64,000 nt of DNA from positions 10,373-74,372 of the forward strand of contig JACRLB010000032.1 in assembly GCA_016235445.1 (NCBI GenBank). The letters are read 5' to 3'. A program made the position numbers and the translations under genes. Origin of the DNA: Chloroflexota bacterium (GTDB taxonomy: Bacteria; Chloroflexota; Anaerolineae; Anaerolineales; Villigracilaceae). Shown one piece after another: positions 4,400 to 52,509 of the stretch. Within the stretch, counting starts at the first letter, position 1. The number at the start of each line of letters is the position of its first letter. The notes under the pieces were generated by a model, which saw only the letters and a program-made list of their open reading frames with translations, made no database searches and was not told the DNA's origin.

Positions 4400-4538
4400 C
4401 CAAAGCCTGCCAAATTATACCCAATTTTTATATGACATTAAACGAAACTTAAGATGACACAATCCACTATTGTACAAACTGTCACAATATTATGATGGGG
4501 GTGCAAATATTCGTTTATTCACATATAAGCAGGCTCAC

Positions 4539-4886
4539 ATGGTCACCCCTACCCTAAAACAGGAAATCACCCAACTCGAAGCCAACTTCTGTGCGGCGCT
4601 TTCAGACCCGAATCGCCTTCTCATTTTATACTCCCTCAGCGAAGGGCCGCGCAACGTAACCGAACTTGGGATTGAACTCGGGTTGAACCAGCCCACTACA
4701 TCGCGCCATCTCAAAGTCCTGCGTGAGCGGGGGCTGGTACACACCGTCCGCACAGGCACAATCATCACCTATCATCTTTCCGATCCAAGACTCATTCAGG
4801 CGCTTGATTTATTACGAAACGCGATGCGCGACAGACTCGCACACCAGGCAAACCTGATTAATGAAGTTTCACAGGAGAATGTATGA
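4539..4886 (+). CDS. ArsR/SmtB-family transcriptional regulator
   Basis: ALSDPNRLLIL...NQPTTSRHLKVLRERGLV. Stop overlaps the start of the next gene (atga). ATG 4539 preferred over TTG 4470. Confidence 0.9.
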   Translation: MVTPTLKQEITQLEANFCAALSDPNRLLILYSLSEGPRNVTELGIELGLNQPTTSRHLKVLRERGLVHTVRTGTIITYHLSDPRLIQALDLLRNAMRDRLAHQANLINEVSQENV

Positions 4887-6366: not shown

Positions 6367-9075
6367 ATGGAACCGACTATGAAACGATACTCCCTCACAA
6401 TCATTGGACTTCTCCTCCTCGCCCTCGCCATTGGATTTGGCCCCGCTCTCGCCTCGTCCGCGCCTGCTCCAGCCTCACAGGCTTCGACACTACACCCGAA
6501 CTTTATCCTGCTCGATGCAGACGGCGCGAACGTGCTCGAAAGCGGCAGTGCCGTCTCCACCATGCAAACCTGCGGACAATGCCACGACACCGATTTCATC
6601 GCCTCGCACGCATTTCACTCCGACCTGGGATTGGCTGATTATGCCGCATCGAAAGAATCATGGGATGCAAGCACAGGCACGTTTGGTCAATGGAATCCGC
6701 TCACCTATCGCTACCTCTCGCAAGACGGCGATGAACGGCTGGACCTCTCCACCGCTGAATGGTTAATGCTGAACGGCGAAAGAGTCGTCGGCGGCGGACC
6801 AGCTACAACGTCACGCAATGATGCGCCGCTCGCAGATGTAAAAGTCAGCAGGGAAAATCCCGAAACGTCCATCTTGAAAAATGGAAGCCCCACAACCTGG
6901 AACTGGGACAAATCCGGCACGATGGAAATGAACTGCTTCCTCTGCCACCTTGAAACTCCCAACACCGAAGCGCGCGCTGAAGCCATTCACGCAGGCGAGT
7001 TTGGCAATGCCAACACCGCCACTTTGATTGGCTTGAATGTGGTCAATAAATCCAGCGAAGGCTGGGTATGGAATCCTGAATCCTTCAACGAGAATGGCGA
7101 ACTCAAAAGCGAGTTCATCGGCATTCAAGACCCCACCAATGCAAACTGCGCCACCTGTCACGGTGAAGTTCACCCCGAAACGGAAGAGCCGCTCACCCTC
7201 AACGCCTGTGATTTGGATTATCCACAAACTGCCACAACAGGCCAGGTCGTCAGCGGACAGCGCATCAACGAGTCTGGCGTAAACCTGACAGACAAAAATA
7301 ATATCGAGCGTTCATGGGATATTCACGCCGAACGACAACTGCAATGCACAGATTGTCACTACGCTTTGAACAACCCTGCACATGCCAGCGAATTGCAAAG
7401 CAATAATCCCGAGCATCTCGTCTACGACCCGCGCTCGCTGGAGATTGGTGAATATCTCGAAAGACCAGACCATAACTTCGCGCGCGGCGAAAGCGCACAA
7501 TTCAACGTGGCTCCCGAATACAAGGGCACCATGCGCCGCTGTGAAAACTGCCACGACGCCAGCAAGGGACATGCAAACTGGCTTCCATACATCGGAACGC
7601 ACATGGACGCAGTCGCCTGCGAAACCTGCCACATCCCGCAGATGTACGCGCCTGCCATCCAAACCTACGACTGGACTGTCATCACGACAAGCGGTACAGC
7701 GGTTGAAACCTGCCGCGGCGTGGATGGCGACCCGAACGCAGTGACATCTCTGGTGACTGGCTACGAGCCTGTTCTGCTCAACCGCACGAACATCGACGGC
7801 GACACTTTGCTCGCGCCGTACAATCTGATTACGTCCTTCTACTGGGTGTACGATGACGCCAATGGAAACAAACGCCCCGTCCGCCTGGTTGATCTCGAAG
7901 CCGCGTATCTCGAAGATGGAAAATATGCGGCAGACATCGCCGCCGCATTTGACTCAAACGGCGACGGCAAACTCGCCTCGAATGAATTAACGCTTGACTC
8001 TGCCGCAAAGACCGATGTGGTCAAAACAAAACTTGCCGCGCTGGGTTTGAACAACCTGCGCATCGAAGGCGTGGTACAGCCGTACAGCATCAACCACAAC
8101 GTCACACGCGGAGACAGCGCCATCAATGACTGCAAAGCCTGTCACAACGAAAACTCACGCATGTCACAGCCGATCAAACTCACAGACTCTGCGCCCGTCC
8201 TGCCTATTTTTGACGCGGCTAACAACGTCAACAACAGCGGCGAATTTGTCACGGACGCGGATGGCGCGTTGTATTACCAGCCCATGCCCGCCGAAGACAA
8301 CTTGTATGTCTTCGGCTCCAGCCGCGTCAATTGGGTGGATTGGTTCGGCGCGATTGCATTTGCGGGTTCGCTCTTAGGTGTGATCGGGCATGGGACGCTG
8401 AGATATCTCTCGTCGCAGAAACAGCCCAAGGGTCAGAAAAGAACCGAGCGGATTTATATGTACGACACGTATCGCCGCTTCTGGCATTGGTTACAGACCT
8501 CGTCCATCGTCATCCTGTTGTTTACAGGCTTGATCATTCACAGACCCGATATTTTCGGTGCGTTCTCGTTCCGCGGTGTGGTGACGGTGCATAACGTGGT
8601 GGCGGTCATCCTTGTGATCAACGCGGCGTTGTCGTTGTTCTATCACATCACGACGGACAGAATTCGGGAGTTCATTCCGCATCCGTATGGGTTTTTCGAT
8701 GATGCGATCGTCCAGGCCAGGTATTACATCGGTGGAATATTCAAGGGCGAAGCTCACCCCTTCGAAAAACTGCCAACCAGCCGCATGAATCCCATTCAGA
8801 AAATGACCTACTTCATGATCTTGAACGTGCTGTTGCCTTTGCAAACCATCACAGGCGCGTTGATGTGGAGCGTGCAAAAGCGGCCTGAGTTCGCAAATGC
8901 GCTCGGCGGACTGCCTTTCCTTGCGCCGTTCCATTCGCTCGTGGCGTGGATGTTTGGCACGTTCATCCTCGTGCATGTGTATATGACCACCACTGGCGCA
9001 ACTCCGCTCGAAGCGATGCGCGGGATGGTGACGGGGTATGAAGAAGTGGAAGTGCATGAGAGCAAGGATGAATGA
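6367..9075 (+). CDS. Heptaheme cytochrome c fused to a C-terminal cytochrome b (FdnI/PhsC/HupC-like) membrane domain
   Basis: Signal peptide; seven CxxCH motifs; C-terminal TM domain with RFWHW, TVHN, NPIQK, FHS and VHVY His motifs. Start may be 6379 (MKRYSL). Confidence 0.85.
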   Translation: MEPTMKRYSLTIIGLLLLALAIGFGPALASSAPAPASQASTLHPNFILLDADGANVLESGSAVSTMQTCGQCHDTDFIASHAFHSDLGLADYAASKESWDASTGTFGQWNPLTYRYLSQDGDERLDLSTAEWLMLNGERVVGGGPATTSRNDAPLADVKVSRENPETSILKNGSPTTWNWDKSGTMEMNCFLCHLETPNTEARAEAIHAGEFGNANTATLIGLNVVNKSSEGWVWNPESFNENGELKSEFIGIQDPTNANCATCHGEVHPETEEPLTLNACDLDYPQTATTGQVVSGQRINESGVNLTDKNNIERSWDIHAERQLQCTDCHYALNNPAHASELQSNNPEHLVYDPRSLEIGEYLERPDHNFARGESAQFNVAPEYKGTMRRCENCHDASKGHANWLPYIGTHMDAVACETCHIPQMYAPAIQTYDWTVITTSGTAVETCRGVDGDPNAVTSLVTGYEPVLLNRTNIDGDTLLAPYNLITSFYWVYDDANGNKRPVRLVDLEAAYLEDGKYAADIAAAFDSNGDGKLASNELTLDSAAKTDVVKTKLAALGLNNLRIEGVVQPYSINHNVTRGDSAINDCKACHNENSRMSQPIKLTDSAPVLPIFDAANNVNNSGEFVTDADGALYYQPMPAEDNLYVFGSSRVNWVDWFGAIAFAGSLLGVIGHGTLRYLSSQKQPKGQKRTERIYMYDTYRRFWHWLQTSSIVILLFTGLIIHRPDIFGAFSFRGVVTVHNVVAVILVINAALSLFYHITTDRIREFIPHPYGFFDDAIVQARYYIGGIFKGEAHPFEKLPTSRMNPIQKMTYFMILNVLLPLQTITGALMWSVQKRPEFANALGGLPFLAPFHSLVAWMFGTFILVHVYMTTTGATPLEAMRGMVTGYEEVEVHESKDE

Positions 9076-38489: not shown

Positions 38490-41157
38490 CTACGGCACGT
38501 AGTATTCGATGATGAGTTGTGGCCTGTTCGCCGCCGCGGCATTGCCGCTGTAAATCTTGAGGAAATCCGCTCCGAGATCGTTGTTGTCATCAATGGCGAA
38601 GCGCAGGCGGAATTGAGTAACGCCCAGCTTGTTGATGTATTGGAAGTTGGCGGCGCTGAACAACTTCGAATACCAGTTGTTGACCTTGGCGCTGGTATAG
38701 GACAGCACATTGTTCTTGCTGGCAGTGGCTTTGAAATCATTGAGTTGCAGGGCCGCATTATTGCTGAACGCTCCCTTGCGGACATCCACAAGCAGGTTGC
38801 CGTGGGCGGTGAATGGTGATGTGCCAGTGAAGTCGATATGCTTGAACTTGAGGGTGGCTTTTGTGATGACAGCATTATCGGGCAGGATGGATGTGTCAAA
38901 TGACAGGATGGCGCGATACTGTCTGTTGGCAGGATCATCTCCCAGATTAAGAGTCGAGGCGGTGGTGTTCACCGTCCCACCCAAGCCGCTGGTCTCCGTC
39001 AATTCAAGAATCCATCCATCCTGCGCGGCAGTGGATGTGACGGGTTATGGTTTTGTTGATATCGTAGGTTTCGCCATTTATATAAGGAAGGCCGCTGAGC
39101 GGGTTCCCGGCCAGGTCGGTGATGGTTGCCGTGTTGGGAACATCAAGGCGGATGGTTCCATTGCCAGAACCAGTGTTAACAGTGACTACATAGGTATCAC
39201 CTGAACCGCTGACGCCCGAAACAGATGCTCCTGTAACACCCGTTGAGGCGAGGGTAAAGTCGTTTGTATCGAGATTTATCACAGGTTTGGAGAATGTTAA
39301 ATTGAAATTCAAGCTACGGGCGCTTGCGGGGTTTGTGTTTGCGCGGGTTGAATTCCTTATGATCGGGTAATCTATTGGCGTGGAAGTTGGGGTAAAAGTG
39401 AATGTTGAAGTTGAAGTTGAAGTTGAAGTAAAAGTAAAGGTGGGGGAAGGCGTGAATGTGTAGGTAGGGGTTGGGGTAAACGTGAAGGTTGGCGTTGGGG
39501 TCGAAGTATCTGTTGGCGTTGGGGTATTGGTAGGTGTGTCGGTTGGGGTGGAGGTAGGAGTTGGCGTGAGTGTTATTGTGGGTGTGTTCGAAGGGGTCAG
39601 AGTGTATGTGGAAGTCGGCGGCACAGGGGTGGCTGTGGCATTCGAGTATGAGACATTCACAGAGACCCAGTCGAGTGAGAAATCACTTTCTGTATTGCTG
39701 GAAACATTGCGTATTCGCAGGCGGAAATTATTATTTGTGAAACTATCTGCGCTCCAGGATAATCCCCAAAGGTTGATGGCGCTGCCAACCAGGTAAGTAG
39801 TTTCGCTGGTACCCAAGGTTGGGGTGTTCTTCCAGGCTGAATACAACTGGCCGTTATTAGGCGAGATCGATACGCACATTTTTGGATCCCCCACTGCGGA
39901 ATCAGCCATTGCATCCAGGCGGACTTGAATGCCTTTAATAGTGGCGCCTGTTGGAATGGAAAAATTGTAGTTAAAGTATCTATGGGTATCTTTTCCTGAG
40001 GTGTCAGTATTACAGCTTGTGGTGGCGCTGGTACCGCTATCCACATCTATTGCAAACACGTCACCATCGCTAAAAGCGCCGACTGGATCAATCTCAAAGC
40101 CGTTCCCGTCGCCGCCTGAGGTTGTGGTCTGCTCACCTGGGTTGTTCCATCCCGTGGTAATGGTTGGAGGCGCGGGCGTTGCAGTGTTATGGGGCGTAGT
40201 GAGAGTGTAGGTGTCTTGCAGGGTTCCCCCGTTGCCAATTGAATAAAATTCAAACGTGAGAGCTGTGTCGCTGGCGGTGATTCGCTGGGCGCCACGATCC
40301 GCGTTATAGCGGAATTCACTGCCTACAACGTACAAAGGTGGTTCCACAAATGGATATGTTGAAGCGCCGCCCAGGCCGTTTACGAAATAAACGATGCCAT
40401 CCTTCAGAATGCGTTCGTACAGGTGTTCATTGCCCGACAAAACTGCGTCAGCCCCCCATTGAGCAAACGGCCATTGCATTCGCGTGGTCGAGCCATGCAC
40501 GATTCCCGAAGAATAGGGAGGGTCGGGGACGACGACAAGATTCCAAATGGAGGTTGAAGCGGCGAGTTGAGTTTGCAGCCACTGTGCCTGTACCGAGGCG
40601 CTGTCGTTGCCATCAGGCTCTGCACCCACAGCGTCGTAGCTGTTCAGAACGAAGAAATGCACCGGCCCGGAGACGAAATCATAATAGCGCTCATTATTGG
40701 AAGAACTGGTATAGCCGCCGCCGGGCAGGTTGAAATAATCTGTATAGGTTGTGGGCAGGCCGTTGGTTGTGCCTGCATCATCGTAATCGTGATCGCCCAG
40801 GGCTGGAAAAAATCTATTGACTGATGCCTGCCCCACAGGGCAAAATGTGCCAGCGGTGGTTATATCTTTCAGGAAAGCGCAGTAATATTTTCCAACAGCC
40901 ATGTCGTATTCTTGCGAGCCTTCCCCCAGCGCCTCGATATAATAATTATCGCCAAGGGTAATAACAAGTTCAGGATTCCAGCCGGCAACCATATTGGCAA
41001 CGGCCGCCTCCGATGAATTGTTCACGCCGTAATCCCCAATGGCGGCGAAGGTGATAACAGAGGATTGCGGCTCAACCAACCTGGGGGTATTTGTACTTAT
41101 AAAAAAAACAACGAACAATATTGTGGCAAAGGCAAAGGCAAAGCCCAGTCTTTTCAT
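38490..41157 (-). pseudogene. Secreted metallophosphoesterase + Pro/Thr linker + Ig-like + shared C-terminal (DNRLRE-like) domain, split by a 1-bp frameshift
   Basis: Signal peptide; GDYG, LGDNYY, GDHDY and GNEHLYER phosphoesterase motifs. Removing one base at 39042-39044 joins KTIT to VTSTAAQDGWILELTETSG and the 38490-39002 ORF, matching three neighbouring genes. Could be a sequencing error. Confidence 0.75.
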
Positions 41158-41210
41158 GTATTTCCTCTCAACACTTCTTGACAACATGGTTGTTCGCCAT
41201 ATCCGGGAAA

Positions 41211-41372: not shown

Positions 41373-43832
41373 CTACGGGACGTAGTATTCAATTATCAAC
41401 CGAGGGCGGTTCGCCGCCGCGGCATTCCCGCTGTAAATCTTGAGGAAATCCGCGCCATTGTCGTTGTTGTCGTCTATCTTGAAGCGCAGACGGAATTGAG
41501 TGGAGCCCCCCTTGTGAATGTATTGGAAGTTCACAGCGTTGAGCGCTTTGATATACCAGCTACTGACCGTGGCGCTGGTATAGACCAGCACCCCGTTCTT
41601 GCTGGCTGTGGCCTTGAAATCGTTGAGTTGCAGGGCCGCATTGGCGCTCAAGGGTCCCTTGCGGATGTCCGCTACCAGATTGCCATGTGTGGTGAAAGGT
41701 GACGTTCCTGTGAAGCCGATATGCTTGAACTTGAGATTGACCTTGGTGATAATGGCATTATCGGGCAGGGAAGCGGTGTTGAAAGAGAGGATGGCGCGGT
41801 ATTGCCTGTCGGCCGCATCGTCACCGAGGTAGAGTTGGGCGGCGGCGCTGTTCATGCTTCCGCCCGTGCCACTCGTTTCGGTGGATTCGAGTATCCATCC
41901 ATCCTGGGAGGCCGTGGGATAAAAGGCAACAGTTACATTGCTCTCCACCGAACCGATGTCGCAGTGCGTGCCTTGCGGACGGGTGCGTCCGTTTTGCGAG
42001 GTGTTATTGACCGGCGCGGCGGCGCAGACCGCATCGTTGCCCGCGTCGATGGCGGGGGAGCCAGGGTTGAGGGGCAGATAGGCCGGAGAACCAGTCAACA
42101 GACCGAGGTTTGGGTCTGAGTTGTCGGTCAAATCGCAGGGAAGACTGCCGTTGGATTCGATCAGGTTATTGAGCACAGTCACGGTAGCGGTGTTTGTACT
42201 GCAATCGCCGTCGCCGTTTATGGAATTGGCGATAATAGTGTTGTAGAGATTCAAAACGCCCACGTTTTTGATGCCGCTGCCCGATCCGGACGCAGAGTTG
42301 TTCGAGAAGGTGCTGTTGGTGACGGTGGCGGCGCCATTGTAGTTGTAAAACCCGCCACCATCGAAGCTTGTGGCGTTGTTACCGTAAAAAGTGCTGTTGG
42401 CAATGGTGACCGTGCCGCCATCATTATCCACGCCGCCGGAGCCATTTGCCACGTTGTTGAGAAAAGCGCTGTTGGTGATGGTGACCTGTCCAGAGATATT
42501 GGCAAGCCCGCCGCCGTATGCACCGCTGGCGTTGCCGTGCTCAACGGTGATGTTTTGCAGAGTAAAGGAAGAACTCGGTGAGACGACAAAGGGACGATGC
42601 AGATCGTTGCCGCTCACAGTGATGTCTCCACCGCCGTCAAGGATGAGACCCAGCCCGCCGTTGATATTCTGCAATCCTGAGCCAAGCGTTATGGTGGCTG
42701 TGCCGAGCGCATCACTAAAGAGGATGGTATCAAGGCCCGTCCCCGCGGCGCAGGCATCCACAGCGGAGTTGGTGTTGGCGGCTTCGATGGCTTCGCGCAG
42801 AGAGCAGTCGCCATCGCTGTTGAGTTCATCAGTGGCGGTGTTGACGGTGATGGTGGCGCTGGGAGTTTCAAAGCGGGCGACGTAATCGGCATTCGCATCC
42901 CCGCCCGCGTTGATGAAATCCCCGCCCGCGTACACATCCGCGCCGCTGATGGCGATGGCATTGACCGAGTTATCCAACGGCGTTGAACCCAGCGCTGACC
43001 ATACTCCGCCGCTGAAGTGGGCGATGTAGTCGGCATTCGCATCCCCGCCTGCATCAAGGAAACCCCCGCCCGCATAAACATCCGTCCCGCTGATGGCGAT
43101 GGCATAGACAGGGTTATTCAACGGCGTCGCGCCCAGAGCTGACCATACTCCGCCACTGAATTTAGCGATGTAATCCGCATTCGCGTCCCCGCCTGCATTG
43201 AAGAATAACCCGCCCGCGTACACATCCGCCCCGCTGATGGCGATGGCATAGACACTGTTATTCAACGATGTCGCGCCCAGAGCAGACCAAGCCCCGCCGC
43301 TGAATTTGGCAATGTAATCCGCATTCGCGTCCCCGCCTGCATCCGTGAAAGTCCCGCCCGCGTACACATCCGCCCCGCTGACGGCGATGGTATTGACAGT
43401 GTTATTCAACGGTGTCCCGCCCAGAGCTGACCATACTCCGCCGCTGAATTTGGCAATGAAATCCGCATTCGCATCCCCGCCTGCATTGAGAAATGCCCCG
43501 CCCGCGTACACATCCGCCCCGCTGATGGCGATGGTATTGACATAGTTATTCAATCCAGTTCCCAGTGCGTTCCACACATTGGGGGAAGCCAGCGGCTTGA
43601 AAGTCGGCCCAAGCGCTGGGTCGAGGCTGACATCGAAATTGGTGATGTCGAGCTCGCCGCTGTAGCCTGTGCTCAAATCCAGCGTGCCGTCTGCGTTGAG
43701 CAGGCGCTCCACGGGCAGGGATGCGGCGTTACCCTCCGCCGCCTGGGCAGGCGTGGCTCTGCCAAGCAGTGAAGCCAGCAGAACAAAGACAAACAAAAAA
43801 TTAAATGAAAACTTTGAAAAGCGGGATTTCAT
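41373..43832 (-). CDS. Secreted protein: five 48-aa beta-propeller-like repeats + CSLREA domain + beta-helix/choice-of-anchor-Q-like region + shared C-terminal domain
   Basis: Signal peptide after aaggaga SD; five 144-bp repeats; GDCSLREAI; GSPAIDAG...QNGRTRPQGTHCDIGSVE; ends RPRLIIEYYVP. Confidence 0.85.
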   Translation of the reverse strand: MKSRFSKFSFNFLFVFVLLASLLGRATPAQAAEGNAASLPVERLLNADGTLDLSTGYSGELDITNFDVSLDPALGPTFKPLASPNVWNALGTGLNNYVNTIAISGADVYAGGAFLNAGGDANADFIAKFSGGVWSALGGTPLNNTVNTIAVSGADVYAGGTFTDAGGDANADYIAKFSGGAWSALGATSLNNSVYAIAISGADVYAGGLFFNAGGDANADYIAKFSGGVWSALGATPLNNPVYAIAISGTDVYAGGGFLDAGGDANADYIAHFSGGVWSALGSTPLDNSVNAIAISGADVYAGGDFINAGGDANADYVARFETPSATITVNTATDELNSDGDCSLREAIEAANTNSAVDACAAGTGLDTILFSDALGTATITLGSGLQNINGGLGLILDGGGDITVSGNDLHRPFVVSPSSSFTLQNITVEHGNASGAYGGGLANISGQVTITNSAFLNNVANGSGGVDNDGGTVTIANSTFYGNNATSFDGGGFYNYNGAATVTNSTFSNNSASGSGSGIKNVGVLNLYNTIIANSINGDGDCSTNTATVTVLNNLIESNGSLPCDLTDNSDPNLGLLTGSPAYLPLNPGSPAIDAGNDAVCAAAPVNNTSQNGRTRPQGTHCDIGSVESNVTVAFYPTASQDGWILESTETSGTGGSMNSAAAQLYLGDDAADRQYRAILSFNTASLPDNAIITKVNLKFKHIGFTGTSPFTTHGNLVADIRKGPLSANAALQLNDFKATASKNGVLVYTSATVSSWYIKALNAVNFQYIHKGGSTQFRLRFKIDDNNDNGADFLKIYSGNAAAANRPRLIIEYYVP

Positions 43833-43934
43833 GAACATTTCTCCTTGTAGGTTGGATATACCAGAGTGGAAAGACTGCAAGAGATTTATCCCACGCCTTC
43901 GTTTCAAGTATATTGGAAGGTTTGAACAAGAGCT

Positions 43935-43963
43935 ATTGTATGAGAATTATCTGGATTGGACAA
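43935..43963 (-). promoter_or_regulatory. sigma70 promoter (duplicated at 46469-46497)
   Basis: TTGTCC-17-TACAAT here and TTGTCT-17-TAAAAT in the second copy; an upstream hairpin (43985-44016 and 46519-46550) separates it from the preceding gene. Confidence 0.6.
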
Positions 43964-44055
43964 CCATCCAAAAGGGGGAAAATTCAGCCCCCGCATCCTG
44001 CTGGATGTGAGGGCTGATTCTGTTTTCTCCATCAATTCCCCCGGCTGATAGTTTT

Positions 44056-44190
44056 CCAGCCACCTGACACTTTGTTTTTTTGGACGCAGATGAACGCTGA
44101 AAACGCTGATTCAAACCATTTTGCTCTTGTTTTCTATCTGCGTTCATCTGCGTTTATCTGCGTCCCATTTTTAAAACTGTCAGATGGATA
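44056..44190. mobile_element. 135-bp MITE-like insertion with 9-bp target-site duplication
   Basis: gatagtttt at 44047-44055 and 44191-44199; a single copy at the empty paralogous site (46581); imperfect TIRs cca(c/t)ctgaca. Confidence 0.88.
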
Positions 44191-44218
44191 GATAGTTTTT
44201 CAATTCACCGTCAACTTC

Positions 44219-46366
44219 CTACGGCACGTAATACTCAATCACCAACTGAGGCCTGTTCACGGCCCCCGCATTCCCGCTGTAGATCTTGAGGAAATTGGCA
44301 ACAGCGTTGTTGTTGTCATCCAGCTTGAAGCGCAGGCGCATCTGCGTCAGCCCTCCGCCCGTGCCAAGTTTATTGATAAAAGTTTTTGCAGGCGTCAGAT
44401 TCAAGTTGTACCAGCCTGCGGTCAATGCGGGGGATGTCGGTCCAACGGTCTTGCTGGCAGTGGCATTGAAATCCCCAAGCGCGAGTGGCGCAGTGCCGAA
44501 CATGCCTTTCTTGATGTCCACCACAAAGCCCTGGAACATGCCGACTGGGTTTCCACCGCCAACCACGCCCTGTCGCTTGAGTTTGAGGGTGACTTTGGTA
44601 ACGATGGCGTTATCAGGCAGGGTGGATGTGTTGAATGACAGGATGGAGCGATACTGTCTTTTAGCGGCATCATCTCCCAGATTAAGAGTCGAGGCGGCGC
44701 TGTTCATCGTTCCGCCCACGCCGCTGGTTTCCGTCGATTCGAGGATAAAGCCATCTTGAGCGCCGGTTGATTTGAAGGTAGTGATTATTGTCTTTTCGAT
44801 ATCATAGGTTTCGCCACTGGTAAAGGGCAGGCCGCTCAATGGATTACTTGACAGGTCAGTGATGGTAGCGGAGGCAGGCACATCGAGACGGATGGTGCCG
44901 TTGCCTGTGCCGGTGGAAACTGTCACAGTGTAGGAACTGCCCGTGCCGCTGACCCCGCTCACGGCGGCGCCAGAGACGCCGCTTGTCGTCAGGGTGAAAT
45001 CGCCCGTATCCACTCCCATTACAGATTCGGAGAAGGTGACGGTGAAATCTACGCTGGTGAGTGCGGTGGGGTTGGGGCTGGCAAGGGCGCTCGCAGTTAC
45101 AATAATTGGTTGAATCCCAAAGCGGGCAATATGATCCGCGTCCGCATTCCCGCCCGCGTTGGAGAAGTCGCCGCCTGCGTACACATCCGTTCCACTGATG
45201 GTAATGGCATAAACCCAGTTATTCAACGGCGTTGAACCCAGCGCAGACCATGCCGAGCCGCTAAATTTGGCGATGAAATCCGCGTTTGCATCCCCGCCTG
45301 CATTAGCGAAGGATCCGCCTGCGTATACATCTGTCCCGCTGATGGCGATGGCGTAGACAAAATTATCCAATGGTGTTGAACCCAGCGCAGACCATGCCGA
45401 GCCGTTGAATTTGGCGATGTAATCGGCATTCATATCCCCGCCCGCATCCGTGAAAGTCCCGCCCGCGTACACATCTGTCCCGCTGACGGCGATGGCATTG
45501 ACCGATTCATTCAACGACGTCGCACCAAGCGCAGACCAGGCAGAGCCGTCGAATTTGGCGATGAAATCGGCATTCACATCCCCACCCGCATTGAAGAAGG
45601 TTCCACCCGCGTATACATCTGTCCCACTGACGGCGATGGCGTTAACCTGCTGATTCAATGGCGCTGAACCGAGCGCAGACCATGCCGAGCCGTTCCATTT
45701 GGCAATGTAATCCGCGTTCGCATCCCCGCCTGCATCGAGGAATCTCCCGCCCACGTACACGTCTGTTCCGCTGATACCGATGGCATGGACAGCATTGCCC
45801 AACGGCACCGCGCCCAGCGCAGACCATGCCGAGCCGTCGAATTTGGCAATGTAATCCGCATTCGCATCCCCGCCTGCATTCGTAAACCAACCGCCCGCGT
45901 ACACATCCGTCCCACTGACGGCGATGGCAGTGACATAGCTATTCAACGGCGTCGCGCCCAGCGCAGACCAGGCAGAGCCGTCCCATTTGGCAATGTAGTC
46001 GGCGTTCGCATCATAGCCTGCATCGAGAAAGTAGCCGCCCGCGTACACATCCGTCCCGCTGATGAAAATGGTAATTACCGAGGACATCAGCCCGGTTCCC
46101 AGAGCATTCCAACTAATGGTGGTAGCCAGCGGCTTGAAAGTTGGCCCAAGAACGGGGTCGAGGCTGACATCGAAATTGGTAATATCGAGTTCGCCGCTGT
46201 AGCCTGTGCTCAAATCCAGCGTGCCGTCTGTGTTGAGCAGGCGCTCCACGGGCAGGGCTGCGTTACTCTCCGCGGCCTGGGCAGGCGTGGCTCTGCCAAG
46301 CAATGAAGCCAGCAAGACAAAGACAAACAAAAAATTAAATAGAAACTTTGAAAAACGGAATTTCAT
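44219..46366 (-). CDS. Secreted protein: seven 48-aa beta-propeller-like repeats + Ig-like + shared C-terminal domain
   Basis: Signal peptide near-identical to gene 41373; seven repeats ALG-x-PL-x3-V-x-AIAxSGTDVYAGGxF; ends RPQLVIEYYVP. Confidence 0.88.
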   Translation of the reverse strand: MKFRFSKFLFNFLFVFVLLASLLGRATPAQAAESNAALPVERLLNTDGTLDLSTGYSGELDITNFDVSLDPVLGPTFKPLATTISWNALGTGLMSSVITIFISGTDVYAGGYFLDAGYDANADYIAKWDGSAWSALGATPLNSYVTAIAVSGTDVYAGGWFTNAGGDANADYIAKFDGSAWSALGAVPLGNAVHAIGISGTDVYVGGRFLDAGGDANADYIAKWNGSAWSALGSAPLNQQVNAIAVSGTDVYAGGTFFNAGGDVNADFIAKFDGSAWSALGATSLNESVNAIAVSGTDVYAGGTFTDAGGDMNADYIAKFNGSAWSALGSTPLDNFVYAIAISGTDVYAGGSFANAGGDANADFIAKFSGSAWSALGSTPLNNWVYAITISGTDVYAGGDFSNAGGNADADHIARFGIQPIIVTASALASPNPTALTSVDFTVTFSESVMGVDTGDFTLTTSGVSGAAVSGVSGTGSSYTVTVSTGTGNGTIRLDVPASATITDLSSNPLSGLPFTSGETYDIEKTIITTFKSTGAQDGFILESTETSGVGGTMNSAASTLNLGDDAAKRQYRSILSFNTSTLPDNAIVTKVTLKLKRQGVVGGGNPVGMFQGFVVDIKKGMFGTAPLALGDFNATASKTVGPTSPALTAGWYNLNLTPAKTFINKLGTGGGLTQMRLRFKLDDNNNAVANFLKIYSGNAGAVNRPQLVIEYYVP

Positions 46367-47384
46367 AAACATTTCTCCTTGTAGGTTGGATATACCAGAA
46401 TGGAAAGACTGCAAGAGATTTATCCCACGCCTTCGTTTCAAGTATATTGGAAGGTTTGAACAAGAGCTATTTTATGAGAATTATCTGGATTAGACAACCA
46501 TCCAAAAGGGGGAAAATTCAGCCCCCGCATCCTGCTGGATGTGAGGGCTGATTCTGTTTTCTGCATCAATTCCCCCGGCTGATAGTTTTTCAATTCGCCG
46601 TCAGCTTCCTACGGCACGTAATACTCGATCACCAACTGAGGCCTGTTCACGGCCCCCGCATTCCCGCTGTAGATCTTGAGGAAATTGGCAACAGCGTTGT
46701 TGTTGTCATCCAGCTTGAAGCGCAGGCGGATTTGCGTCAACCCGCCGCCCGTGCCAAGTTTATTGATAAAGGTTTTTGCAGGCGTCAGATTCAGGTTGTA
46801 CCAGCCTGCGGTCAATGCGGGGGAGGATGGCCCGACGGTCTTGCTGGCGGTGGCATTGAAATCTCCGAGCGCAAGAGGTGCAGTGCCGAACATGCCTTTC
46901 TTGATATCTGTCACAAAGCCCTGGAACATACCGACTGGGTTTCCACCGCCAACCACGCCCTGTCGCTTGAGTTTGAGGGTGACTTTGGTAACGATGGCGT
47001 TATCAGGCAGGGTGGCAGTGTTGAATGACAGGATGGAGCGATACTGTCTTTTAGCGGCATCATCTCCCAGATTAAGAGTCGAGGCGGTGGCGTTCATCGT
47101 CCCGCCCACGCCGCTGGTTTCCGTCGATTCGAGGATAAAGCCATCTTGAGCGCCAGTTGATTTGAAGGTAGTGATTATTGTCTTTTCGATATCATAGGTT
47201 TCGCCACTGGTAAAGGGCAGGCCGCTCAATGGATTACTTGACAGGTCAGTGATGGTGGCGGAGACAGGCACATCGAGGCGGATGGTGCCGTTGCCTGTGC
47301 CGGTGGAAACTGTCACAGTGTAGGAACTGCCCGTGCCGCTGACCCCGCTCACGGCGGCGCCAGAGACGCCGCTTGTCGTCAGGG
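46125..47384. repeat. Direct repeat copy B
   Basis: Matches 43588-44994 (offset 2537 at the low end, 2390 at the high end). Confidence 0.9.
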
Positions 47385-49728
47385 CAAAGTCGTCAAACGC
47401 AGGTCCAACATTATCTACTCCCGTCACAGGTTTAGAGAATGTGACTGTGAAATCCACGCTGGAGGCAGGGGTGGGGTTGGAGTTGGCAAGCACGCTGGAA
47501 ACTATGGAAGGTGCAGGTTGGCATTCGTATATTTGCACGTCATCCAGCCACCAGCCATATCCGCCGCTATTGGATGAACCCATCCCAAAGCGAAAGCGGA
47601 ACATTATATTTTGACCCGCCAGCGAACTCAGGTCTAAGCGGGTGGAAATATATCCGTGACTGATGCCGAAAAATACCTGGCGGCCATTCAAAGGATTTGT
47701 GGCATTGGACAGCGTCATGTCATAGCCATTGCCGTCCATCAAGGAGCCGGCGTCGATCCACGAGGCTCCGTCTGTTGTGCTGTACTCAAGAACACTGCCA
47801 GCCCCGGTTGCGTAGGCATGATGAAAGATCATTTTTCCGTTGGCTGGTACGATGACGCTATTGGCCATTTGTATGGTTGTATCTGCAACTTGCACAGGCA
47901 AAATATCGGCAAAGAGAAAATGATCGCCTGAGTGGGCAAAGATGCCGAGCGTGGCTTCGTAGGGCCAGTCGTAGGTCCAATGATTTGCGCCAACTGCAGC
48001 GCCGCTTATCCAATTGGCGGGGCCGCTTTCCATATCATCGTAAAAGCTGTTGAATGGGAGTTCCCCGGCAACATCACAAGCCGCGACATCGGGGTTATAT
48101 CCGCCAGCAGGCAGGAGAGGTTGGAGATTCATCTCGACTGCGGTGATGGCATCCAGAACTTCCTGGCAATCCGCGGGGGTGATTCCAGCAATGCCGATCT
48201 GTGCGGCGCAGGATGCTTGCAAGGCGTAATACAGGTCGGCATAATCTGCCCCGGAAGTGAGCAGGTTGGTTTGGACGTAATAATATATCTTGGCAACTTT
48301 GGTGATGCCCAACCCGGTAATGGTTTGTCCGTTAAAAGTTCCGCCATCTACCATTAAAGCGACAGCCTTGTTATTTACGCCGCTATTAACATGGACGCCA
48401 ACGGCTTCGCTCGCTCCGGTATAGTAAAACGGGCTGGTCATTTTATCTGGGTTTGAAAAAAGGGCGGGGTTGTTCATATCGCGCACGGCGCCGCCGGGAG
48501 CATCTTCGGCAATTTTCCAACGGACGGCTGGGGTGTCGGTGCCTGATCCATTGGTTAAGTCTACAAATTCCCCCCATATATCTGAAAACGACTCGTTAAT
48601 GGCGCCTGCCTGCCATAAAAGGAATAAGTCGGATGTGTAATCTGTAACTCCGTGGGTTAGTTCATGTGCCACAACATCATCCGCAACCCAGCCTGCGGCA
48701 TAGATCATCTGGGACCCAGTCCAGCGGGCAGTGGGAAAGGTGGACGTATTAGTGGTGGAGATGATACTCATGCCCGCGCCGTCAATGCTGTCGCGTCCGT
48801 GATTGGTCATGTAAAAATCATAGACATCACCTGCGTACTCGTGAGCCTTGATTGCATCGGGTGTACCGCCTGCGCACGTGGGGTTGCTCTCATCGCAGGC
48901 AAGCGTGCCGGGTATTGCGGCGGTGCCGGCGGCATCATAGGTTTTACGATCCATGATCTCTGCGATCTGATTAGTGGAGAGCACAATATCGCCGTGTTGT
49001 GCATCCACCAAAACCAATTGACGGATTGGGCCGAGACTATTTTTTGGAGTTACTTCAATGCGCCAAACCAAAACGGTTTCACCATTGTAGGGAGTCAACA
49101 ATACCGGGTTGTAGATCCACAATTCAGGGACGCTGGTTTGCAGTCCTTCGATACTGACGCCGTTTTCCAAAGCAGTTGCGACGAGGGCAGTTTGAATAGA
49201 AGTGGCTTCATCCACCATGGGGGTGGTGTCCAGTTCAATATTGGGGAGAATATCTCCGCTTGCGGAGAGCACATTGTTGGCAGAATCCATGTGGACAATC
49301 ATTTCGCCAGCCAGGATGGGGACGCCGTGATATGTTTGCTGGAAGCGCACAGCGCTTGCGCCATTGTCGATTTGTGTTTTGAGCAAGACCTTGAGGTCTT
49401 TCGCGGGGTCTGCAAGCCCAAATTCACGCCCGCGTACTTCGAGGAATGAGGTGGCGGCTTTTTCCGGGGTCGCGTTACTCATCAAAGCAGTTGCTTTTTT
49501 AATGGGAGCCCCGGATTGCGCGCCCATGAAACGCGCCATTCCTGTCAATGGATGGTAGGCAACCACTTCCCCTTGTTCGCGAGGATGACCTTCAAGCAAA
49601 ATACCTGCACCGTTGGCAGGGCTGTTTGGCCTTAAATCAAATGCCGCCTGTGTCGGAGTCGCCATCACCACACTCAACACAAGGCTTGATAATACCGCCA
49701 TACGTACAAGAGTATTCATGATTTTCAT
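46609..49728 (-). CDS. Secreted M4 (thermolysin-family) metallopeptidase + MAM/InhA-like + Ig-like + shared C-terminal domain
   Basis: Signal peptide; FTP/PepSY propeptide (VRFQQTYHGVPI, LVWRIEV); HELTH, GAINESFSD, VHVNSGVNNK; ends RPQLVIEYYVP. Confidence 0.9.
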   Translation of the reverse strand: MKIMNTLVRMAVLSSLVLSVVMATPTQAAFDLRPNSPANGAGILLEGHPREQGEVVAYHPLTGMARFMGAQSGAPIKKATALMSNATPEKAATSFLEVRGREFGLADPAKDLKVLLKTQIDNGASAVRFQQTYHGVPILAGEMIVHMDSANNVLSASGDILPNIELDTTPMVDEATSIQTALVATALENGVSIEGLQTSVPELWIYNPVLLTPYNGETVLVWRIEVTPKNSLGPIRQLVLVDAQHGDIVLSTNQIAEIMDRKTYDAAGTAAIPGTLACDESNPTCAGGTPDAIKAHEYAGDVYDFYMTNHGRDSIDGAGMSIISTTNTSTFPTARWTGSQMIYAAGWVADDVVAHELTHGVTDYTSDLFLLWQAGAINESFSDIWGEFVDLTNGSGTDTPAVRWKIAEDAPGGAVRDMNNPALFSNPDKMTSPFYYTGASEAVGVHVNSGVNNKAVALMVDGGTFNGQTITGLGITKVAKIYYYVQTNLLTSGADYADLYYALQASCAAQIGIAGITPADCQEVLDAITAVEMNLQPLLPAGGYNPDVAACDVAGELPFNSFYDDMESGPANWISGAAVGANHWTYDWPYEATLGIFAHSGDHFLFADILPVQVADTTIQMANSVIVPANGKMIFHHAYATGAGSVLEYSTTDGASWIDAGSLMDGNGYDMTLSNATNPLNGRQVFFGISHGYISTRLDLSSLAGQNIMFRFRFGMGSSNSGGYGWWLDDVQIYECQPAPSIVSSVLANSNPTPASSVDFTVTFSKPVTGVDNVGPAFDDFALTTSGVSGAAVSGVSGTGSSYTVTVSTGTGNGTIRLDVPVSATITDLSSNPLSGLPFTSGETYDIEKTIITTFKSTGAQDGFILESTETSGVGGTMNATASTLNLGDDAAKRQYRSILSFNTATLPDNAIVTKVTLKLKRQGVVGGGNPVGMFQGFVTDIKKGMFGTAPLALGDFNATASKTVGPSSPALTAGWYNLNLTPAKTFINKLGTGGGLTQIRLRFKLDDNNNAVANFLKIYSGNAGAVNRPQLVIEYYVP

Positions 49729-49896
49729 TTGAAGTTTCCTTTTTTGTAAATTAATTTTGTATCTTCTCAATAATCAGGGGAAACGCCCCGAAGGTTTCGT
49801 TACATTTACTACATTACTGTTCGAGTTTACCCAAAGTATCGATTAATTCTGTTGCCAATTTGTTGACAAATCAATCGGGTAAAATTGCTCTTAACA

Positions 49897-52509
49897 ATGG
49901 CTAAACGCAGGGCTGTGCTCAGTCGTTCTGAATTCACCACCTTTGGCGAATTGTTGCGCTATTTACGCGAACGCGTCAGGCTTTCTCAACGTGAACTGGC
50001 TCAAAAGGTCGGCTATCACTATAGCTACATCAGCCGCCTGGAGAGAAATTCGCGCACGCTCGATGTGCTCACTCTGCGTACGCGCTTCATCCCCGCCCTT
50101 CGGATTCAGAACGAACCTGCCTGGGTCGAGCGTCTGCTCGAATTAGCAGACGGCCCAAATGACTCAGCGGAAGATCAGGCTCTGGTTGCAGAACCAGCTC
50201 GAAGCGCGGGGCGAAGCGTGAGTCGGCCTGTCAGCCTGACGCCACTATTGGGGCGCGAATCCGAATCTGAGGCATTGTTCCAAATTCTATTGGACGAAGA
50301 AGTACGCCTGGTTACGTTGATCGGCCCGCCTGGGGTGGGAAAAACCCGCCTTTCCATTCACATCCTCGAACAGCTTTCATCCATGTTTGCAAACGGAGCG
50401 GTGTTTGTCGATCTCATGCCTGTTTTAGATGCTGGGCAGGTGATCACTGCCCTCGCCGCAGTTTTGGGCACGCAGGAAACCATTAAAGCGTCGGCGCTTG
50501 AAAATGTGAAGTCCGCTTTGCAGGGCAGCAGTTTGCTGATCGTGATGGATAATTTTGAACAGGTGCTGGCCGCCGCGCCGCAATTGCTTCCAATTTTGGG
50601 AGCCGCGCCCGGGGTGAAAATTCTAGCGACCAGCCGCGAAGCATTGCGTTTGCGCGGCGAGCAGGAGTTCCCGCTTGCGCCGCTGGCAGTGCCGGATGAA
50701 AAAAGCCAGTCTGTTTTGGATTTCCCCTCCGTACAGCTTTTCATGCAACGGGCACATTCCGCCAAACCAGATTTTCAACTTGATGAAGAAGACGCTTCGC
50801 GCGCCGCCGAGATATGCCGCCGTTTAGACGGTTTACCCCTCGCTATTGAATTGGCCGCCGCGCGCATTCGCACCTTCTCCCCTGCCGATATGCTCGAACA
50901 GTTCGACCGTCGCTTTCAGTGGTTGGCGCATACCAGCAGGGATATGCCCGAATGGCGCAGAACCTTATGGTCCACCATCGAATGGAGCTACAACCTGCTT
51001 TCAGAAAAAGAACGCGCCTTGTTTGAGCGTCTCTCCGTTTTTACAGGTGGCTGGACAATTGAAGCCGCCGAGGCCCTGTGTAGTGACGGGAAATTTTTCC
51101 CGCAAACCGAAACATTAACCATACTGATGCAATTGGTGGGCAAATCGCTGGTGGCGTCAGAGACAGGTGGGCGTTATCGGTTTCTGGATACGATTGAAAA
51201 ATTTGCGCACGAGAAACTTATCGAAAGCGGCGGCCTGGAAGAAATGAACAACAGCCACCTGCGTTATTTTGCAGATTGGGCTGAAGCTTTGGAAGCACAA
51301 TTCAACACGATCACGCCGCTTATTTTTCAATCGCGCGCTGCGCCGGAATTGACGAATATCCGCGCCGCGCTGGAATGGGCGCTGCACCACCGCGAGGCTT
51401 TTGTCGATGGGTTAAGGCTTTCAATTCCTACGAGCTTGATATGGCTCGAGCTTGGCCAAATCCGTGACGAGTACGAGCGCGCCCGGATATTCCTGCGAGG
51501 CATTACCGATCCTGCACTGCAACCTTTGCAGGTTCGCCTGCTCCTGCGAACCGCCGCGCTTGGATTCCGTATTGAGTCAGGGGGTATACCCTACGAAGAC
51601 TGCTTGAACGCGGAGCGTATTGCGCGCAGTTTGAATGATATGAAACTGTTGGCTGATGTGCTATTCGCGCTAGGTGATATGGATCGTGAATTAAGAAGAT
51701 TCGATTCTGCGGATAAATATTTAACGGAATGCGTGGCGATGTATCGTGAACTCAACCTGCTGGCAGAGTTGAATCACAGCCTCTCCAGCATGGGAAATAA
51801 TCTTTATCATTTGGGCAGATTTGCAGGGTCGCGGGCTGCGTTGGATGAAGCGCTGGAAATAGCCATTCAAATCAGCGACCCCACCGGGCTGGGTTCCGCA
51901 TTGCGTGTACGGGCCACCAACCTTCGTTATGATGGGAAGTATCTCGAAGCGCTTGAGGCGTTTAAGAGCGCATTGGATGTGGCGCGCACCAACGGAGATC
52001 GTCCAAATGTTGCCATCAACCTGGCAAACTTATGTGTGCTCGCAAATTTGTTGGAAGATTACCCCGCGTCTGCCGATTATGCCGAAGCGGCGATCATGGT
52101 TTTCCAATCCCTTGGCAATAGAGATCAGCAGGCGTTTCCAAAACGGATGCTGGCGTATGCGTTGCTACAGCAGGGATTTTCCGCCAGAGCAAAGGTTTAC
52201 GCATTGGAAAGTTTACACATCAATCTTGAAGCCGGCACACGAGGGATGGGGACTCTGCCCAGTTTGCTTGCCCTTGCTGAAATAGAACTGGCCGAAGGAA
52301 ATCTGGAGACCCCAGCGCGCATCTATGGATTCCTGAAGCCCCAGCTTGAAGGGAAGTTCCTTGTAGTCAATCCCGACTCACGTTCATTTGATAGGGTTGG
52401 CTGTAAACTAGTTGGGAAAGGGACTGAAGCCTGGCAGATCGAAGGCGCATCCATGCTGCTGGATGAGGCAGTCATCAGTTTTGATGGAAGCAGTTCAGCA
52501 AGCCCGTAG
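49897..52509 (+). CDS. XRE-HTH + STAND (NB-ARC-like) ATPase + TPR transcriptional regulator
   Basis: LRYLRERVRLSQRELA HTH, GPPGVGKT, LIVMDNFEQ, LDGLPLAIELAAAR, WSYNLL, C-terminal TPR-like helices. Confidence 0.9.
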   Translation: MAKRRAVLSRSEFTTFGELLRYLRERVRLSQRELAQKVGYHYSYISRLERNSRTLDVLTLRTRFIPALRIQNEPAWVERLLELADGPNDSAEDQALVAEPARSAGRSVSRPVSLTPLLGRESESEALFQILLDEEVRLVTLIGPPGVGKTRLSIHILEQLSSMFANGAVFVDLMPVLDAGQVITALAAVLGTQETIKASALENVKSALQGSSLLIVMDNFEQVLAAAPQLLPILGAAPGVKILATSREALRLRGEQEFPLAPLAVPDEKSQSVLDFPSVQLFMQRAHSAKPDFQLDEEDASRAAEICRRLDGLPLAIELAAARIRTFSPADMLEQFDRRFQWLAHTSRDMPEWRRTLWSTIEWSYNLLSEKERALFERLSVFTGGWTIEAAEALCSDGKFFPQTETLTILMQLVGKSLVASETGGRYRFLDTIEKFAHEKLIESGGLEEMNNSHLRYFADWAEALEAQFNTITPLIFQSRAAPELTNIRAALEWALHHREAFVDGLRLSIPTSLIWLELGQIRDEYERARIFLRGITDPALQPLQVRLLLRTAALGFRIESGGIPYEDCLNAERIARSLNDMKLLADVLFALGDMDRELRRFDSADKYLTECVAMYRELNLLAELNHSLSSMGNNLYHLGRFAGSRAALDEALEIAIQISDPTGLGSALRVRATNLRYDGKYLEALEAFKSALDVARTNGDRPNVAINLANLCVLANLLEDYPASADYAEAAIMVFQSLGNRDQQAFPKRMLAYALLQQGFSARAKVYALESLHINLEAGTRGMGTLPSLLALAEIELAEGNLETPARIYGFLKPQLEGKFLVVNPDSRSFDRVGCKLVGKGTEAWQIEGASMLLDEAVISFDGSSSASP

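Follow-up and report, generated by a model that had tools for sequence, protein, structure and literature searches.

Probable gene conversion between neighbouring gene junctions in a tandem array of secreted modular protein genes of an uncultivated Anaerolineales bacterium

In a 64,000-nucleotide stretch of DNA from an uncultivated Anaerolineales bacterium (hereafter the window), a block of about 1.25 kb that spans a gene boundary is present twice in a tandem gene array. A sequence-only reading had taken this repeat as the footprint of an unequal crossover that created the gene lying between the two copies, called M. We consider instead, with a probability of roughly 0.7, that the block results from a recent gene conversion between neighbouring junctions of an older paralogue array, and is not the scar of M's birth. 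Divergence is distributed in two tiers, the edges of the block are sharp, three-taxon site patterns are incongruent between segments, and the architecture of M exists elsewhere.

The array is composed of four tandem co-oriented genes, P, M, C and G1, all on the minus strand, which were delimited from open reading frames and, for their domains, from matches to Pfam and NCBIfam models. Their products are secreted modular proteins, in which the head varies and the tail is common. The heads are an M4 protease, a seven- or five-blade propeller, a propeller with beta-helix, or a metallophosphatase; the tails consist of an Ig-like domain and/or a DNRLRE (CBM96-like) domain, with two DNRLRE subtypes side by side. 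Gene P (46609-49770, the true start being likely at 49728) encodes a signal peptide, an FTP propeptide, an M4 (thermolysin-type) metalloprotease body ending in DDVQIYEC, an Ig-like domain and a DNRLRE 'beta' tail. Its Pfam scores (Peptidase_M4 68.5, Peptidase_M4_C 90.7 and FTP 48.9 bits) all exceed the gathering scores, and its translation shows HELTHG (HExxH motif) and GAINESFSD. Gene M (44219-46366, 715 aa from the ATG at 46366) encodes a signal peptide, seven 48-aa repeats (45116-46111), an Ig-like domain and a DNRLRE 'beta' tail. The repeats are predicted to form a seven-bladed beta-propeller; residues 90-410 are modelled by AlphaFold2 with a pLDDT of 85-95, and propellers are matched in the PDB. 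Gene C (41373-43832), for which a sister species was also used, has a signal peptide, five 48-aa propeller-type repeats (42870-43574), a CSLREA / choice-of-anchor-Q beta-helix and a DNRLRE 'alpha' tail. Gene G1 (38490-41187) encodes, at 39004-41187, a signal peptide, a calcineurin-like metallophosphatase head, a PT-rich linker and an Ig-like domain. Three-frame translation places its DNRLRE tail (38490-39002) in a different reading frame, which implies a 1-nt frameshift or a sequencing error near 39004-39040. Divergently transcribed from the array, on the plus strand, is a gene for an HTH-ATPase-TPR regulator (49885-52509). Elsewhere in the genus, homologues of this regulator adjoin genes for similar secreted proteins.

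The DNRLRE domain (NCBIfam NF033679) was first described in PMC2447325, and shares about 30% identity with CBM96, an alginate-binding module (PMC9971899). Against the 34-bit cut-off of NF033679, the tails of M, P and G1 score 37.6, 35.0 and 38.4 bits. As in other proteins of this family, they form the C-terminal ~160 residues, end in IEYYVP and are joined to secreted enzymes or binding modules. The tail of C, at 30.1 bits, is under the cut-off, yet clearly homologous.

Self-comparison and global alignment confirmed that the block occurs twice, as copy A (43601-44997) and copy B (46138-47387), both on the minus strand; the limits given earlier for a ~1.26-kb block, 43588 and 47384, correspond to the outer edges of the copies. 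Over 1253 aligned nt, there are about 58 mismatches (~95% identity). Identity in 50-nt windows varies between 88 and 100%, and exact runs of ~100 nt are shared. Copy A extends from within the Ig domain of M, through its tail, to the first ~76 residues of C, and copy B from the tail of P to residue ~76 of M. Read in the direction of the genes, the block starts with the last ~260 codons of the upstream gene (the C-terminal two thirds of the Ig-like domain and the DNRLRE tail) and its stop codon. A terminator-like hairpin (43975-43992 in copy A, 46509-46526 in copy B) and a promoter-like site (43935-43963 and 46469-46497) are found at equivalent places. Next come the leader and an AAGGAG ribosome-binding site, and the downstream gene contributes its signal peptide and first ~76 residues. 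The content attributed to the block by the sequence-only reading, from upstream 3' end to downstream 5' end, is seen in both copies. A search of the genome found no further copy of the intergenic leader beyond these two, and the conserved leader had no Rfam match.

The copies differ by a 144-nt insertion in copy A (44047-44190) and a 3-nt indel at 43720; a third indel, 15 nt at 45006, falls just outside the block. The 144-nt insertion, for which no strand is assigned, consists of a 135-bp insert with a duplicated GATAGTTTT. It is missing from copy B and from the sister species, where the empty sites carry a single GATAGTTTT. About 25 near-full-length copies are found in the genome, at 82-90% identity, and the fold z-score is -9.1. 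Being dispersed and multi-copy, hairpin-forming, flanked by a target-site duplication and matched by an empty site, it is a miniature inverted-repeat / hairpin element.

M is indeed a mosaic, as had been proposed. Its head is nearest to gene C (98% identity in the intergenic region, 90-92% nt in the N-terminus, and the same 48-aa repeat type), and its tail is nearest to P (95% nt). Part of the 98% reflects constraint and not recency, because the leader itself is conserved at 88-94% between species, above the level of synonymous sites. However, homology persists past both edges of the block at only 72-84%. This weaker homology, not seen in the first reading, changes the interpretation of the block. 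Identity is 96% inside and 76% outside the edge at 44997; at ~43600 the corresponding values are 88% and 78%. The former breakpoint (~44997 / 47387) lies inside the Ig domain, and not at the propeller/Ig junction, so that within this single domain the amino acid identity of M and P rises from 54% N-terminally to 97% C-terminally. The linker and the N-terminal part of M's Ig domain (44998-45115, minus strand) lie outside the block and show an old divergence from P, with ~75% nt identity and a 5-codon indel. The 54% identity to P is no better than the 32-59% found against unrelated Ig domains. Beyond the other edge, the repeat array of M (996 nt) is 77-78% identical to that of C at the nucleotide level.

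Synonymous divergence follows the same two tiers. In the block, dS is 0.14 for the tail (sub-windows 0.05-0.26) and 0.26 for the N-terminus. Outside, it reaches 0.66 between the M and C arrays, a value that internal shuffling of repeats, which blurs the register, could inflate, and 0.69 between M and P in the N-terminal part of the Ig domain, a segment of 33 codons that is too short for a firm dS. Mismatch density differs between the block and its left flank (p=4e-34), as do third positions between block and outside (Fisher tests, p=2.7e-4 and 1.6e-4). Within the tail block, third-position mismatches are clustered (p=0.0006), which suggests nested tracts of different ages. A third paralogue (C13:330-886 in the genome) was considered as donor of the more divergent patch of the tail block, and ruled out, its site patterns relative to the two copies being symmetric (7 vs 8). 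Diversifying selection behind the array divergence was also ruled out: dN/dS is ~0.25 and dS itself is high, so that selection at the protein level does not explain the excess. The five repeat units of C differ mutually by ~15%, more than the 5% of the block, hence they were already distinct when the block was copied. M has no close copy of any of them.

Contig L036 of a sister species, which derives from Hainich groundwater (assembly ERZ1292634 and co-assemblies), was used as a clock. Gene C is the orthologue of its protein P0017 (hereafter R); orthologue dS is 0.29-0.56. In the array, dS is 0.66 for M-C, 0.65 for M-R and 0.47 for C-R. The last value is matched by the rest of the gene (0.46), which rules out a faster neutral evolution of the array. 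Site patterns in the array (75/66/56, with 66 for the M-C grouping) are star-like, M, C and R being equidistant. In contrast to these, the patterns of the intergenic region favour a pairing of the two window copies, to the exclusion of the sister species, by 18 vs 4 and 1, and those of the N-terminus do so by 19 vs 10 and 11. Heterogeneity across segments is significant (chi-square, p=0.0017). This paralogue-versus-orthologue test covers the intergenic and N-terminal half of the block. In L036 itself, adjacent tails are ~97% identical over their last 140 nt, and ~75% upstream of this stretch, which is an independent conversion tract between neighbouring tails.

The sister species yielded no orthologue of M; its contig stops 4.8 kb upstream of the orthologue of C. 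In a collection of 5.8 billion proteins, no M-like protein exceeded 60% identity, and the only matches above 70% were C itself and P0017. Among 40 relatives in the genus and order nothing exceeded 67%, and that in tails only. The age of M is thus read from divergence levels, and not from an observed orthologue. Upstream of the C orthologue, L036 carries an unrelated 1395-aa gene. It was rejected as a counterpart of G1, having no similarity to it, and its faint Pfam 'phosphatase' matches were spurious. Matches of the repeat, Ig and tail type in G007 were likewise rejected as M orthologues, their heads being beta-helix proteins. In the next relative, G041, the protease head is at another location, and there is no C- or M-type gene. 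The sequence-only reading had proposed to look for relatives holding only the two parental genes; P and C side by side without M were found neither in L036, where the contig ends upstream of the C orthologue, nor in G041.

The order signal peptide, propeller, Ig, DNRLRE is kept over the full length of P0019, P0040 and P0066, at 51-56% identity to M. These proteins, from Anaerolineae-like genomes, resemble M in module order, in having seven to eight blades and 720-727 aa, and in their 'beta' tail. The domain combination, earlier regarded as new, is therefore not new. Unlike M, the genes for P0019 and P0040 are downstream of prepilin peptidase and TadE/Tad genes and beside glmS, in a conserved tad-pilus synteny, with no protease array; in the window's genome, the same tad site (contig C17) has no room for an M-type gene. 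A propeller-to-Ig linker, ARFG(I/L), and a motif, TFSESVxGVDTGDF, are common to M and to the propeller-Ig protein P0078 of another organism. The protease body of P has matches at 83-86% identity in proteins whose tails are quite different, and P thus looks like a head-tail mosaic whose own tail is a graft.

From these data we propose the following course of events. M would be a pre-existing paralogue that had a propeller array and an Ig domain of its own. Once the sister species had diverged, the P|M and M|C junctions would have mispaired, out of register, and some 1.25 kb would have been copied non-reciprocally from one to the other; the direction and the number of events are inferred. The tract stops within the Ig domain on one side and, on the other, about nine codons short of the first propeller blade. 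The likely mechanism is interlocus gene conversion of the RecA type, which amounts to a double-crossover patch. The hairpin element would have entered copy A after the exchange. Misaligned pairing of neighbouring array units, the process invoked by the sequence-only reading, is upheld; and gene conversion among old paralogues, which that reading had set against its own proposal, is essentially what the data show.

Could a recent single unequal crossover, from inside C to inside P, have generated M by a ~2.4-kb tandem duplication, with the repeat as its footprint? The layout (a C-like head, a P-like tail and two copies of the junction) is exactly as expected, and the nearest relative showed no orthologue of M. 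However, such an event predicts a uniformly low divergence over the ~2.4 kb, whereas about half of the unit is only 72-84% identical, with dS of 0.66-0.69. Moreover, the array of M is no nearer to C than to the orthologue in another species, M lacks a close copy of any C unit although these differ by ~15%, the breakpoint falls inside the Ig domain, and the combination of domains was already known elsewhere. This makes a recent crossover very improbable as the origin of M. Even less credence is given to an assembly artefact, in which the P-M-C order, or the assignment of copies to genes, would be a mis-join at near-identical stretches. The genome is a MAG of 55 contigs, the copies share exact runs of ~100 nt, and the frameshift in G1 could be a sequencing error. 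Against this, the copies differ at ~58 positions and by three indels, including the mobile-element insertion, and the reading frames of M, C and P are all intact. The ~1.1 kb of unique sequence in M requires a head and a tail anyway, and its mosaic similarity is unaffected by swapping the block copies.

An older crossover between P and C, dating from the divergence of the sister species or earlier, could also have given birth to M, with later homogenisation of the central 1.25 kb. This agrees with gene conversion in an older array as to the block, and differs solely on the ultimate origin of M. It accounts for the roughly equal dS of the two old flanks (0.66 for the M-C array and 0.69 for the M-P Ig segment), and for the array of M being closer to those of C and R (74-77% aa) than to any other known propeller array (at most 63%). 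Against it, the second of these dS values comes from the short 33-codon segment, the N-terminal Ig segment of M shows no specific relationship to that of P (54%, versus 56-59% for the Ig domains of C22, P0078 and P0070), the propeller-to-Ig linker and the motif are shared with P0078, and the tail of P itself looks grafted. We regard this older birth of M as rather unlikely.

Interlocus gene conversion between bacterial paralogues has been surveyed across prokaryotes (PMC6053082), and concerted evolution was described for release-factor genes (PMC4530459) and rRNA operons (PMC8022953). The locus studied here shares several traits with such cases: paralogues are more alike than orthologues within the tract, the edges are sharp in continuing homology, tracts are nested or mosaic, and donor and recipient are close together. 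Unlike them, the host is an uncultivated Anaerolineales bacterium, and the tract crosses a gene boundary, comprising tail, terminator, promoter and signal peptide, so that one gene pair was homogenised at its 3' end and, at the same time, another at its 5' end. Other examples of concerted evolution are tufA/tufB, and babA/babB of Helicobacter. Chimeras born by tandem duplication also have head-to-tail units, and M carries the head of its downstream neighbour and the tail of its upstream neighbour, as they do. It departs from them by its uneven divergence, and by a high-identity tract that covers about half of the unit and ends within a domain. The locus is best read as concerted evolution by gene conversion in a recombining array, and such conversion is an ordinary route of evolution for these gene families. 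The finding opens no new mechanism, and settles no long-standing question.

A bolder proposal is that the junction is a maintained, portable recombination module for swapping heads in a co-regulated secretion array, that is, a natural domain-shuffling system. The cassette would comprise the second half of the Ig domain, the DNRLRE tail, terminator, promoter, leader, signal peptide and the conserved N-terminal ~85 residues. Some observations hint at it: the leader is more conserved between species (88-94%) than synonymous sites are; the protease head, which in the window is within the array, is found in a relative between response-regulator and histidine-kinase genes, and its break falls exactly after DDVQIYEC; sister species have different heads at the same junction; and independent conversion tracts are present in both species. 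We hold this to be unlikely, a speculation at this stage. If true, Anaerolineales would exchange catalytic or binding heads via the junction cassette.

More generally, the locus exemplifies a trap: a high-identity repeat spanning a gene boundary in a tandem family can mimic the scar of a gene birth, while really stemming from a later homogenisation, and duplication dates taken from such tracts would be wrong. The locus also documents a rapid swapping of heads, tails and promoters, among adjacent genes as well as among sister species, in the secreted modular proteins of uncultivated Anaerolineales, whose Ig/DNRLRE tails bear protease, propeller, beta-helix or phosphatase heads. This is useful for annotating such very common 'hypothetical' surface proteins.

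Four co-oriented genes lie on the minus strand of the window between 38.5 and 49.8 kb, in a MAG of 55 contigs that is 98% complete and that is assigned to the Anaerolineales (Chloroflexota) from the names which databases give to its close homologues. In order of transcription, and with domains assigned from Pfam and NCBIfam, these are P (46609-49770), with an M4 protease head, an Ig-like domain and a DNRLRE tail; M (44219-46366), with a signal peptide, seven 48-aa repeats, an Ig-like domain and a DNRLRE tail; C (41373-43832), with a signal peptide, five 48-aa repeats, a CSLREA / choice-of-anchor-Q beta-helix and a DNRLRE tail; and G1 (39004-41187), with a metallophosphatase head and a tail in a different frame (38490-39002). 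The G1 body ends in '...ETYDINKTITRHIHCRAGWMDS*'; what should follow, '...VTSTAAQDGWILELTETSGLGG...', is read in another frame, as is the DNRLRE tail. This frameshift (38990-39045) means either that G1 has recently become a pseudogene or that the assembly is off by 1 nt close to a CCC run. P adjoins an HTH-ATPase-TPR regulator gene (49885-52509) divergent from the array. For the M repeats, AlphaFold2 gives a confident propeller (pLDDT 85-95 at residues 90-410), which matches PDB propeller structures. The DNRLRE domain has been described in surface proteins of archaea and bacteria (PMC2447325), and is ~30% identical to CBM96, an alginate-binding module (PMC9971899). The family reaches beyond the four-gene array, since more intact Ig/DNRLRE genes lie on contig C13 of the same genome (C13:3993-10016). 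Also on C13 (330-886), ~9.5 kb before the window begins, a 'beta'-type DNRLRE tail survives in degraded form, 80% identical to the M tail in protein, with an internal deletion and stop codons upstream.

BLAST self-comparison and global alignment confirmed the coordinates and description that the sequence-only reading gave for a repeated block at the P|M and M|C junctions. Copy A (43601-44997, M|C) and copy B (46138-47387, P|M) are ~95% identical over 1253 aligned nt, copy A carrying in addition a 144-nt insertion. In gene order, the block starts inside the Ig domain and continues through the DNRLRE tail, stop codon, terminator-like hairpin, promoter-like site, leader, signal peptide and first ~76 residues of the next gene. 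Identity falls abruptly at both edges, and homology goes on beyond them: on the left, identity is 72-84% over ~725 nt of repeat array, and on the right it is ~75% over ~100 nt from the start of the Ig domain, where there is also a 5-codon indel. Inside the block, dS was 0.14 for the tail (sub-windows 0.05-0.26) and 0.26 for the N-terminus, versus 0.66 for the arrays and 0.69 for the N-terminal part of the Ig domain outside it (third-position Fisher tests, p=2.7e-4 and 1.6e-4). Array dN/dS is ~0.25, so these two tiers are not due to selection at the protein level. With such sharp edges and such a contrast in dS, the block does not look like the scar of M's birth, as had been proposed. Third-position differences in the tail of the block are concentrated in codons 153-220 (p=0.0006), a pattern suggestive of nested tracts; a third paralogue, considered as the source of this divergent patch, does not account for it.

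We aligned the Ig domains of this genome and of homologues. Over the first ~39 residues M and P are 54% identical, within the 32-59% found between M and unrelated Ig domains, and over the remaining 70 residues they are 97% identical, versus 51-73% for other Ig domains. This jump inside the domain indicates that M and P each owned an Ig domain before the exchange. On this alignment, the propeller-to-Ig junction of M was not a product of the block-forming event; P0078, a propeller-Ig protein from a different organism, has both the linker 'ARFGI' of M and its motif 'TFSESVxGVDTGDF'.

An external clock came from a protein search, which found a 917-aa orthologue of C (P0017) on a 21.8-kb groundwater contig, L036, of a sister species. 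The genes that flank it are in synteny with the window (DUF1684, 93% nt; GAF-HD gene, 90% nt), and orthologues of the two organisms differ by a dS of 0.29-0.56. Between C and P0017, dS is 0.46 for the beta-helix plus tail and 0.47 for the array, so that silent sites of the arrays are not unusually fast. The M array is equidistant, at dS 0.66 from the C array and 0.65 from that of P0017, and three-taxon site patterns are star-like (C=R 75, M=C 66, M=R 56, R being P0017). The two window copies group strongly in the intergenic segment (18 vs 4 and 1) and moderately in the N-terminus (19 vs 10 and 11), with significant heterogeneity among segments (p=0.0017). Thus the arrays split around the species split or earlier, and the block was homogenised afterwards. 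No M orthologue was seen on L036, a contig that ends. In the alignment, M and P0017 have seven collinear units each, and C (array at 42870-43574, five units) has cleanly lost exactly two (96 aa) via a hybrid first unit; repeat arrays can shuffle internally.

We therefore favour, with a probability of about 0.7, a reading in which the array is older and actively recombining, and its P|M and M|C junctions underwent interlocus gene conversion recently. That a single recent unequal crossover gave rise to M, as first proposed, is very unlikely: tandem duplication of a C-to-P unit should leave similar divergence over ~2.4 kb, rather than the two-tier, non-uniform pattern observed. Moreover, the five units of C are ~15% apart from each other, more than the 5% of the block, and hence were already distinct when it was copied, yet none of them has a close copy in the M array (best M-C unit pair, 84%). 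For the ultimate origin of M, an unequal crossover long ago with later conversion is possible, if rather doubtful, and the N-terminal part of the Ig domain lends it no specific support.

Nor is the domain combination of M new, as a creation by crossover had implied: P0019, P0040 and P0066 (720-727 aa), from other organisms, align with M end to end at 51-56% identity, with the same module order and tail subtype. P0019 and P0040, from two different assemblies, share one context (EPSP synthase, prepilin peptidase, TadE, Tad, TadE). The equivalent tad site of the present genome, on contig C17, has no room for an M-type gene. At L041 8001-10169, upstream of glmS, and at L042 7835-9997, genes for full-length M-type proteins of other Anaerolineae come immediately after prepilin peptidase and TadE/Tad genes, which hints at a link between the propeller-Ig-DNRLRE protein and tight-adherence pili.

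P, the supposed parent of M, appears to be itself a mosaic. Its protease body, to '...DDVQIYEC', is 83-86% identical to P0122-P0124, and the head-tail break falls exactly after this motif; in these homologues the body is joined to CARDB, or metallophosphatase plus CARDB, tails. In a relative's genome (G041), a P-type protease gene sits between response-regulator and histidine-kinase genes; between the equivalent neighbours on own contig C42 (23392-23668; 82-94% aa identity, 276 nt apart) there is none. At L037 10001-13333, in a related genome, a counterpart of the P protease head (85% identical) with a metallophosphatase+CARDB tail lies between such genes, flanked by two ~35-nt hairpin copies, of which the C42 site holds one.

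Conversion recurs in the DNRLRE-tail family. In L036, the 3' ends of two adjacent genes, one for a 1395-aa protein and the other P0017, are ~97% identical over ~140 nt (4420-4559 vs 7418-7557; 75-nt perfect run), versus ~75% upstream, an independent conversion tract between neighbouring tails. The G1 tail and sequence downstream are collinear with those of P0017 (87.5%); array membership beside DUF1684 has thus also been rearranged via tails. In cross-species comparison, the intergenic terminator-promoter-leader (43833-44046 and 44191-44218; 46367-46608; L036 4560-4803) is under constraint, its leader being 88-94% conserved versus 75-84% at third codon positions of flanking genes. The leader, present in only two copies in the genome and matching nothing in Rfam, is possibly regulatory and served by the adjacent HTH-ATPase-TPR regulator. 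The insertion in copy A (44047-44190) is a 135-bp miniature hairpin element plus duplicated GATAGTTTT. This element is dispersed in the genome (~25 near-full-length copies at 82-90%, many fragments) and folds far better than shuffles (z -9.1); the sites in copy B and L036 are empty, so it was inserted after the exchange.

There is ample documentation that gene conversion makes bacterial paralogues evolve in concert (PMC6053082, PMC4530459, PMC8022953), and the block would be a new instance of this known process.
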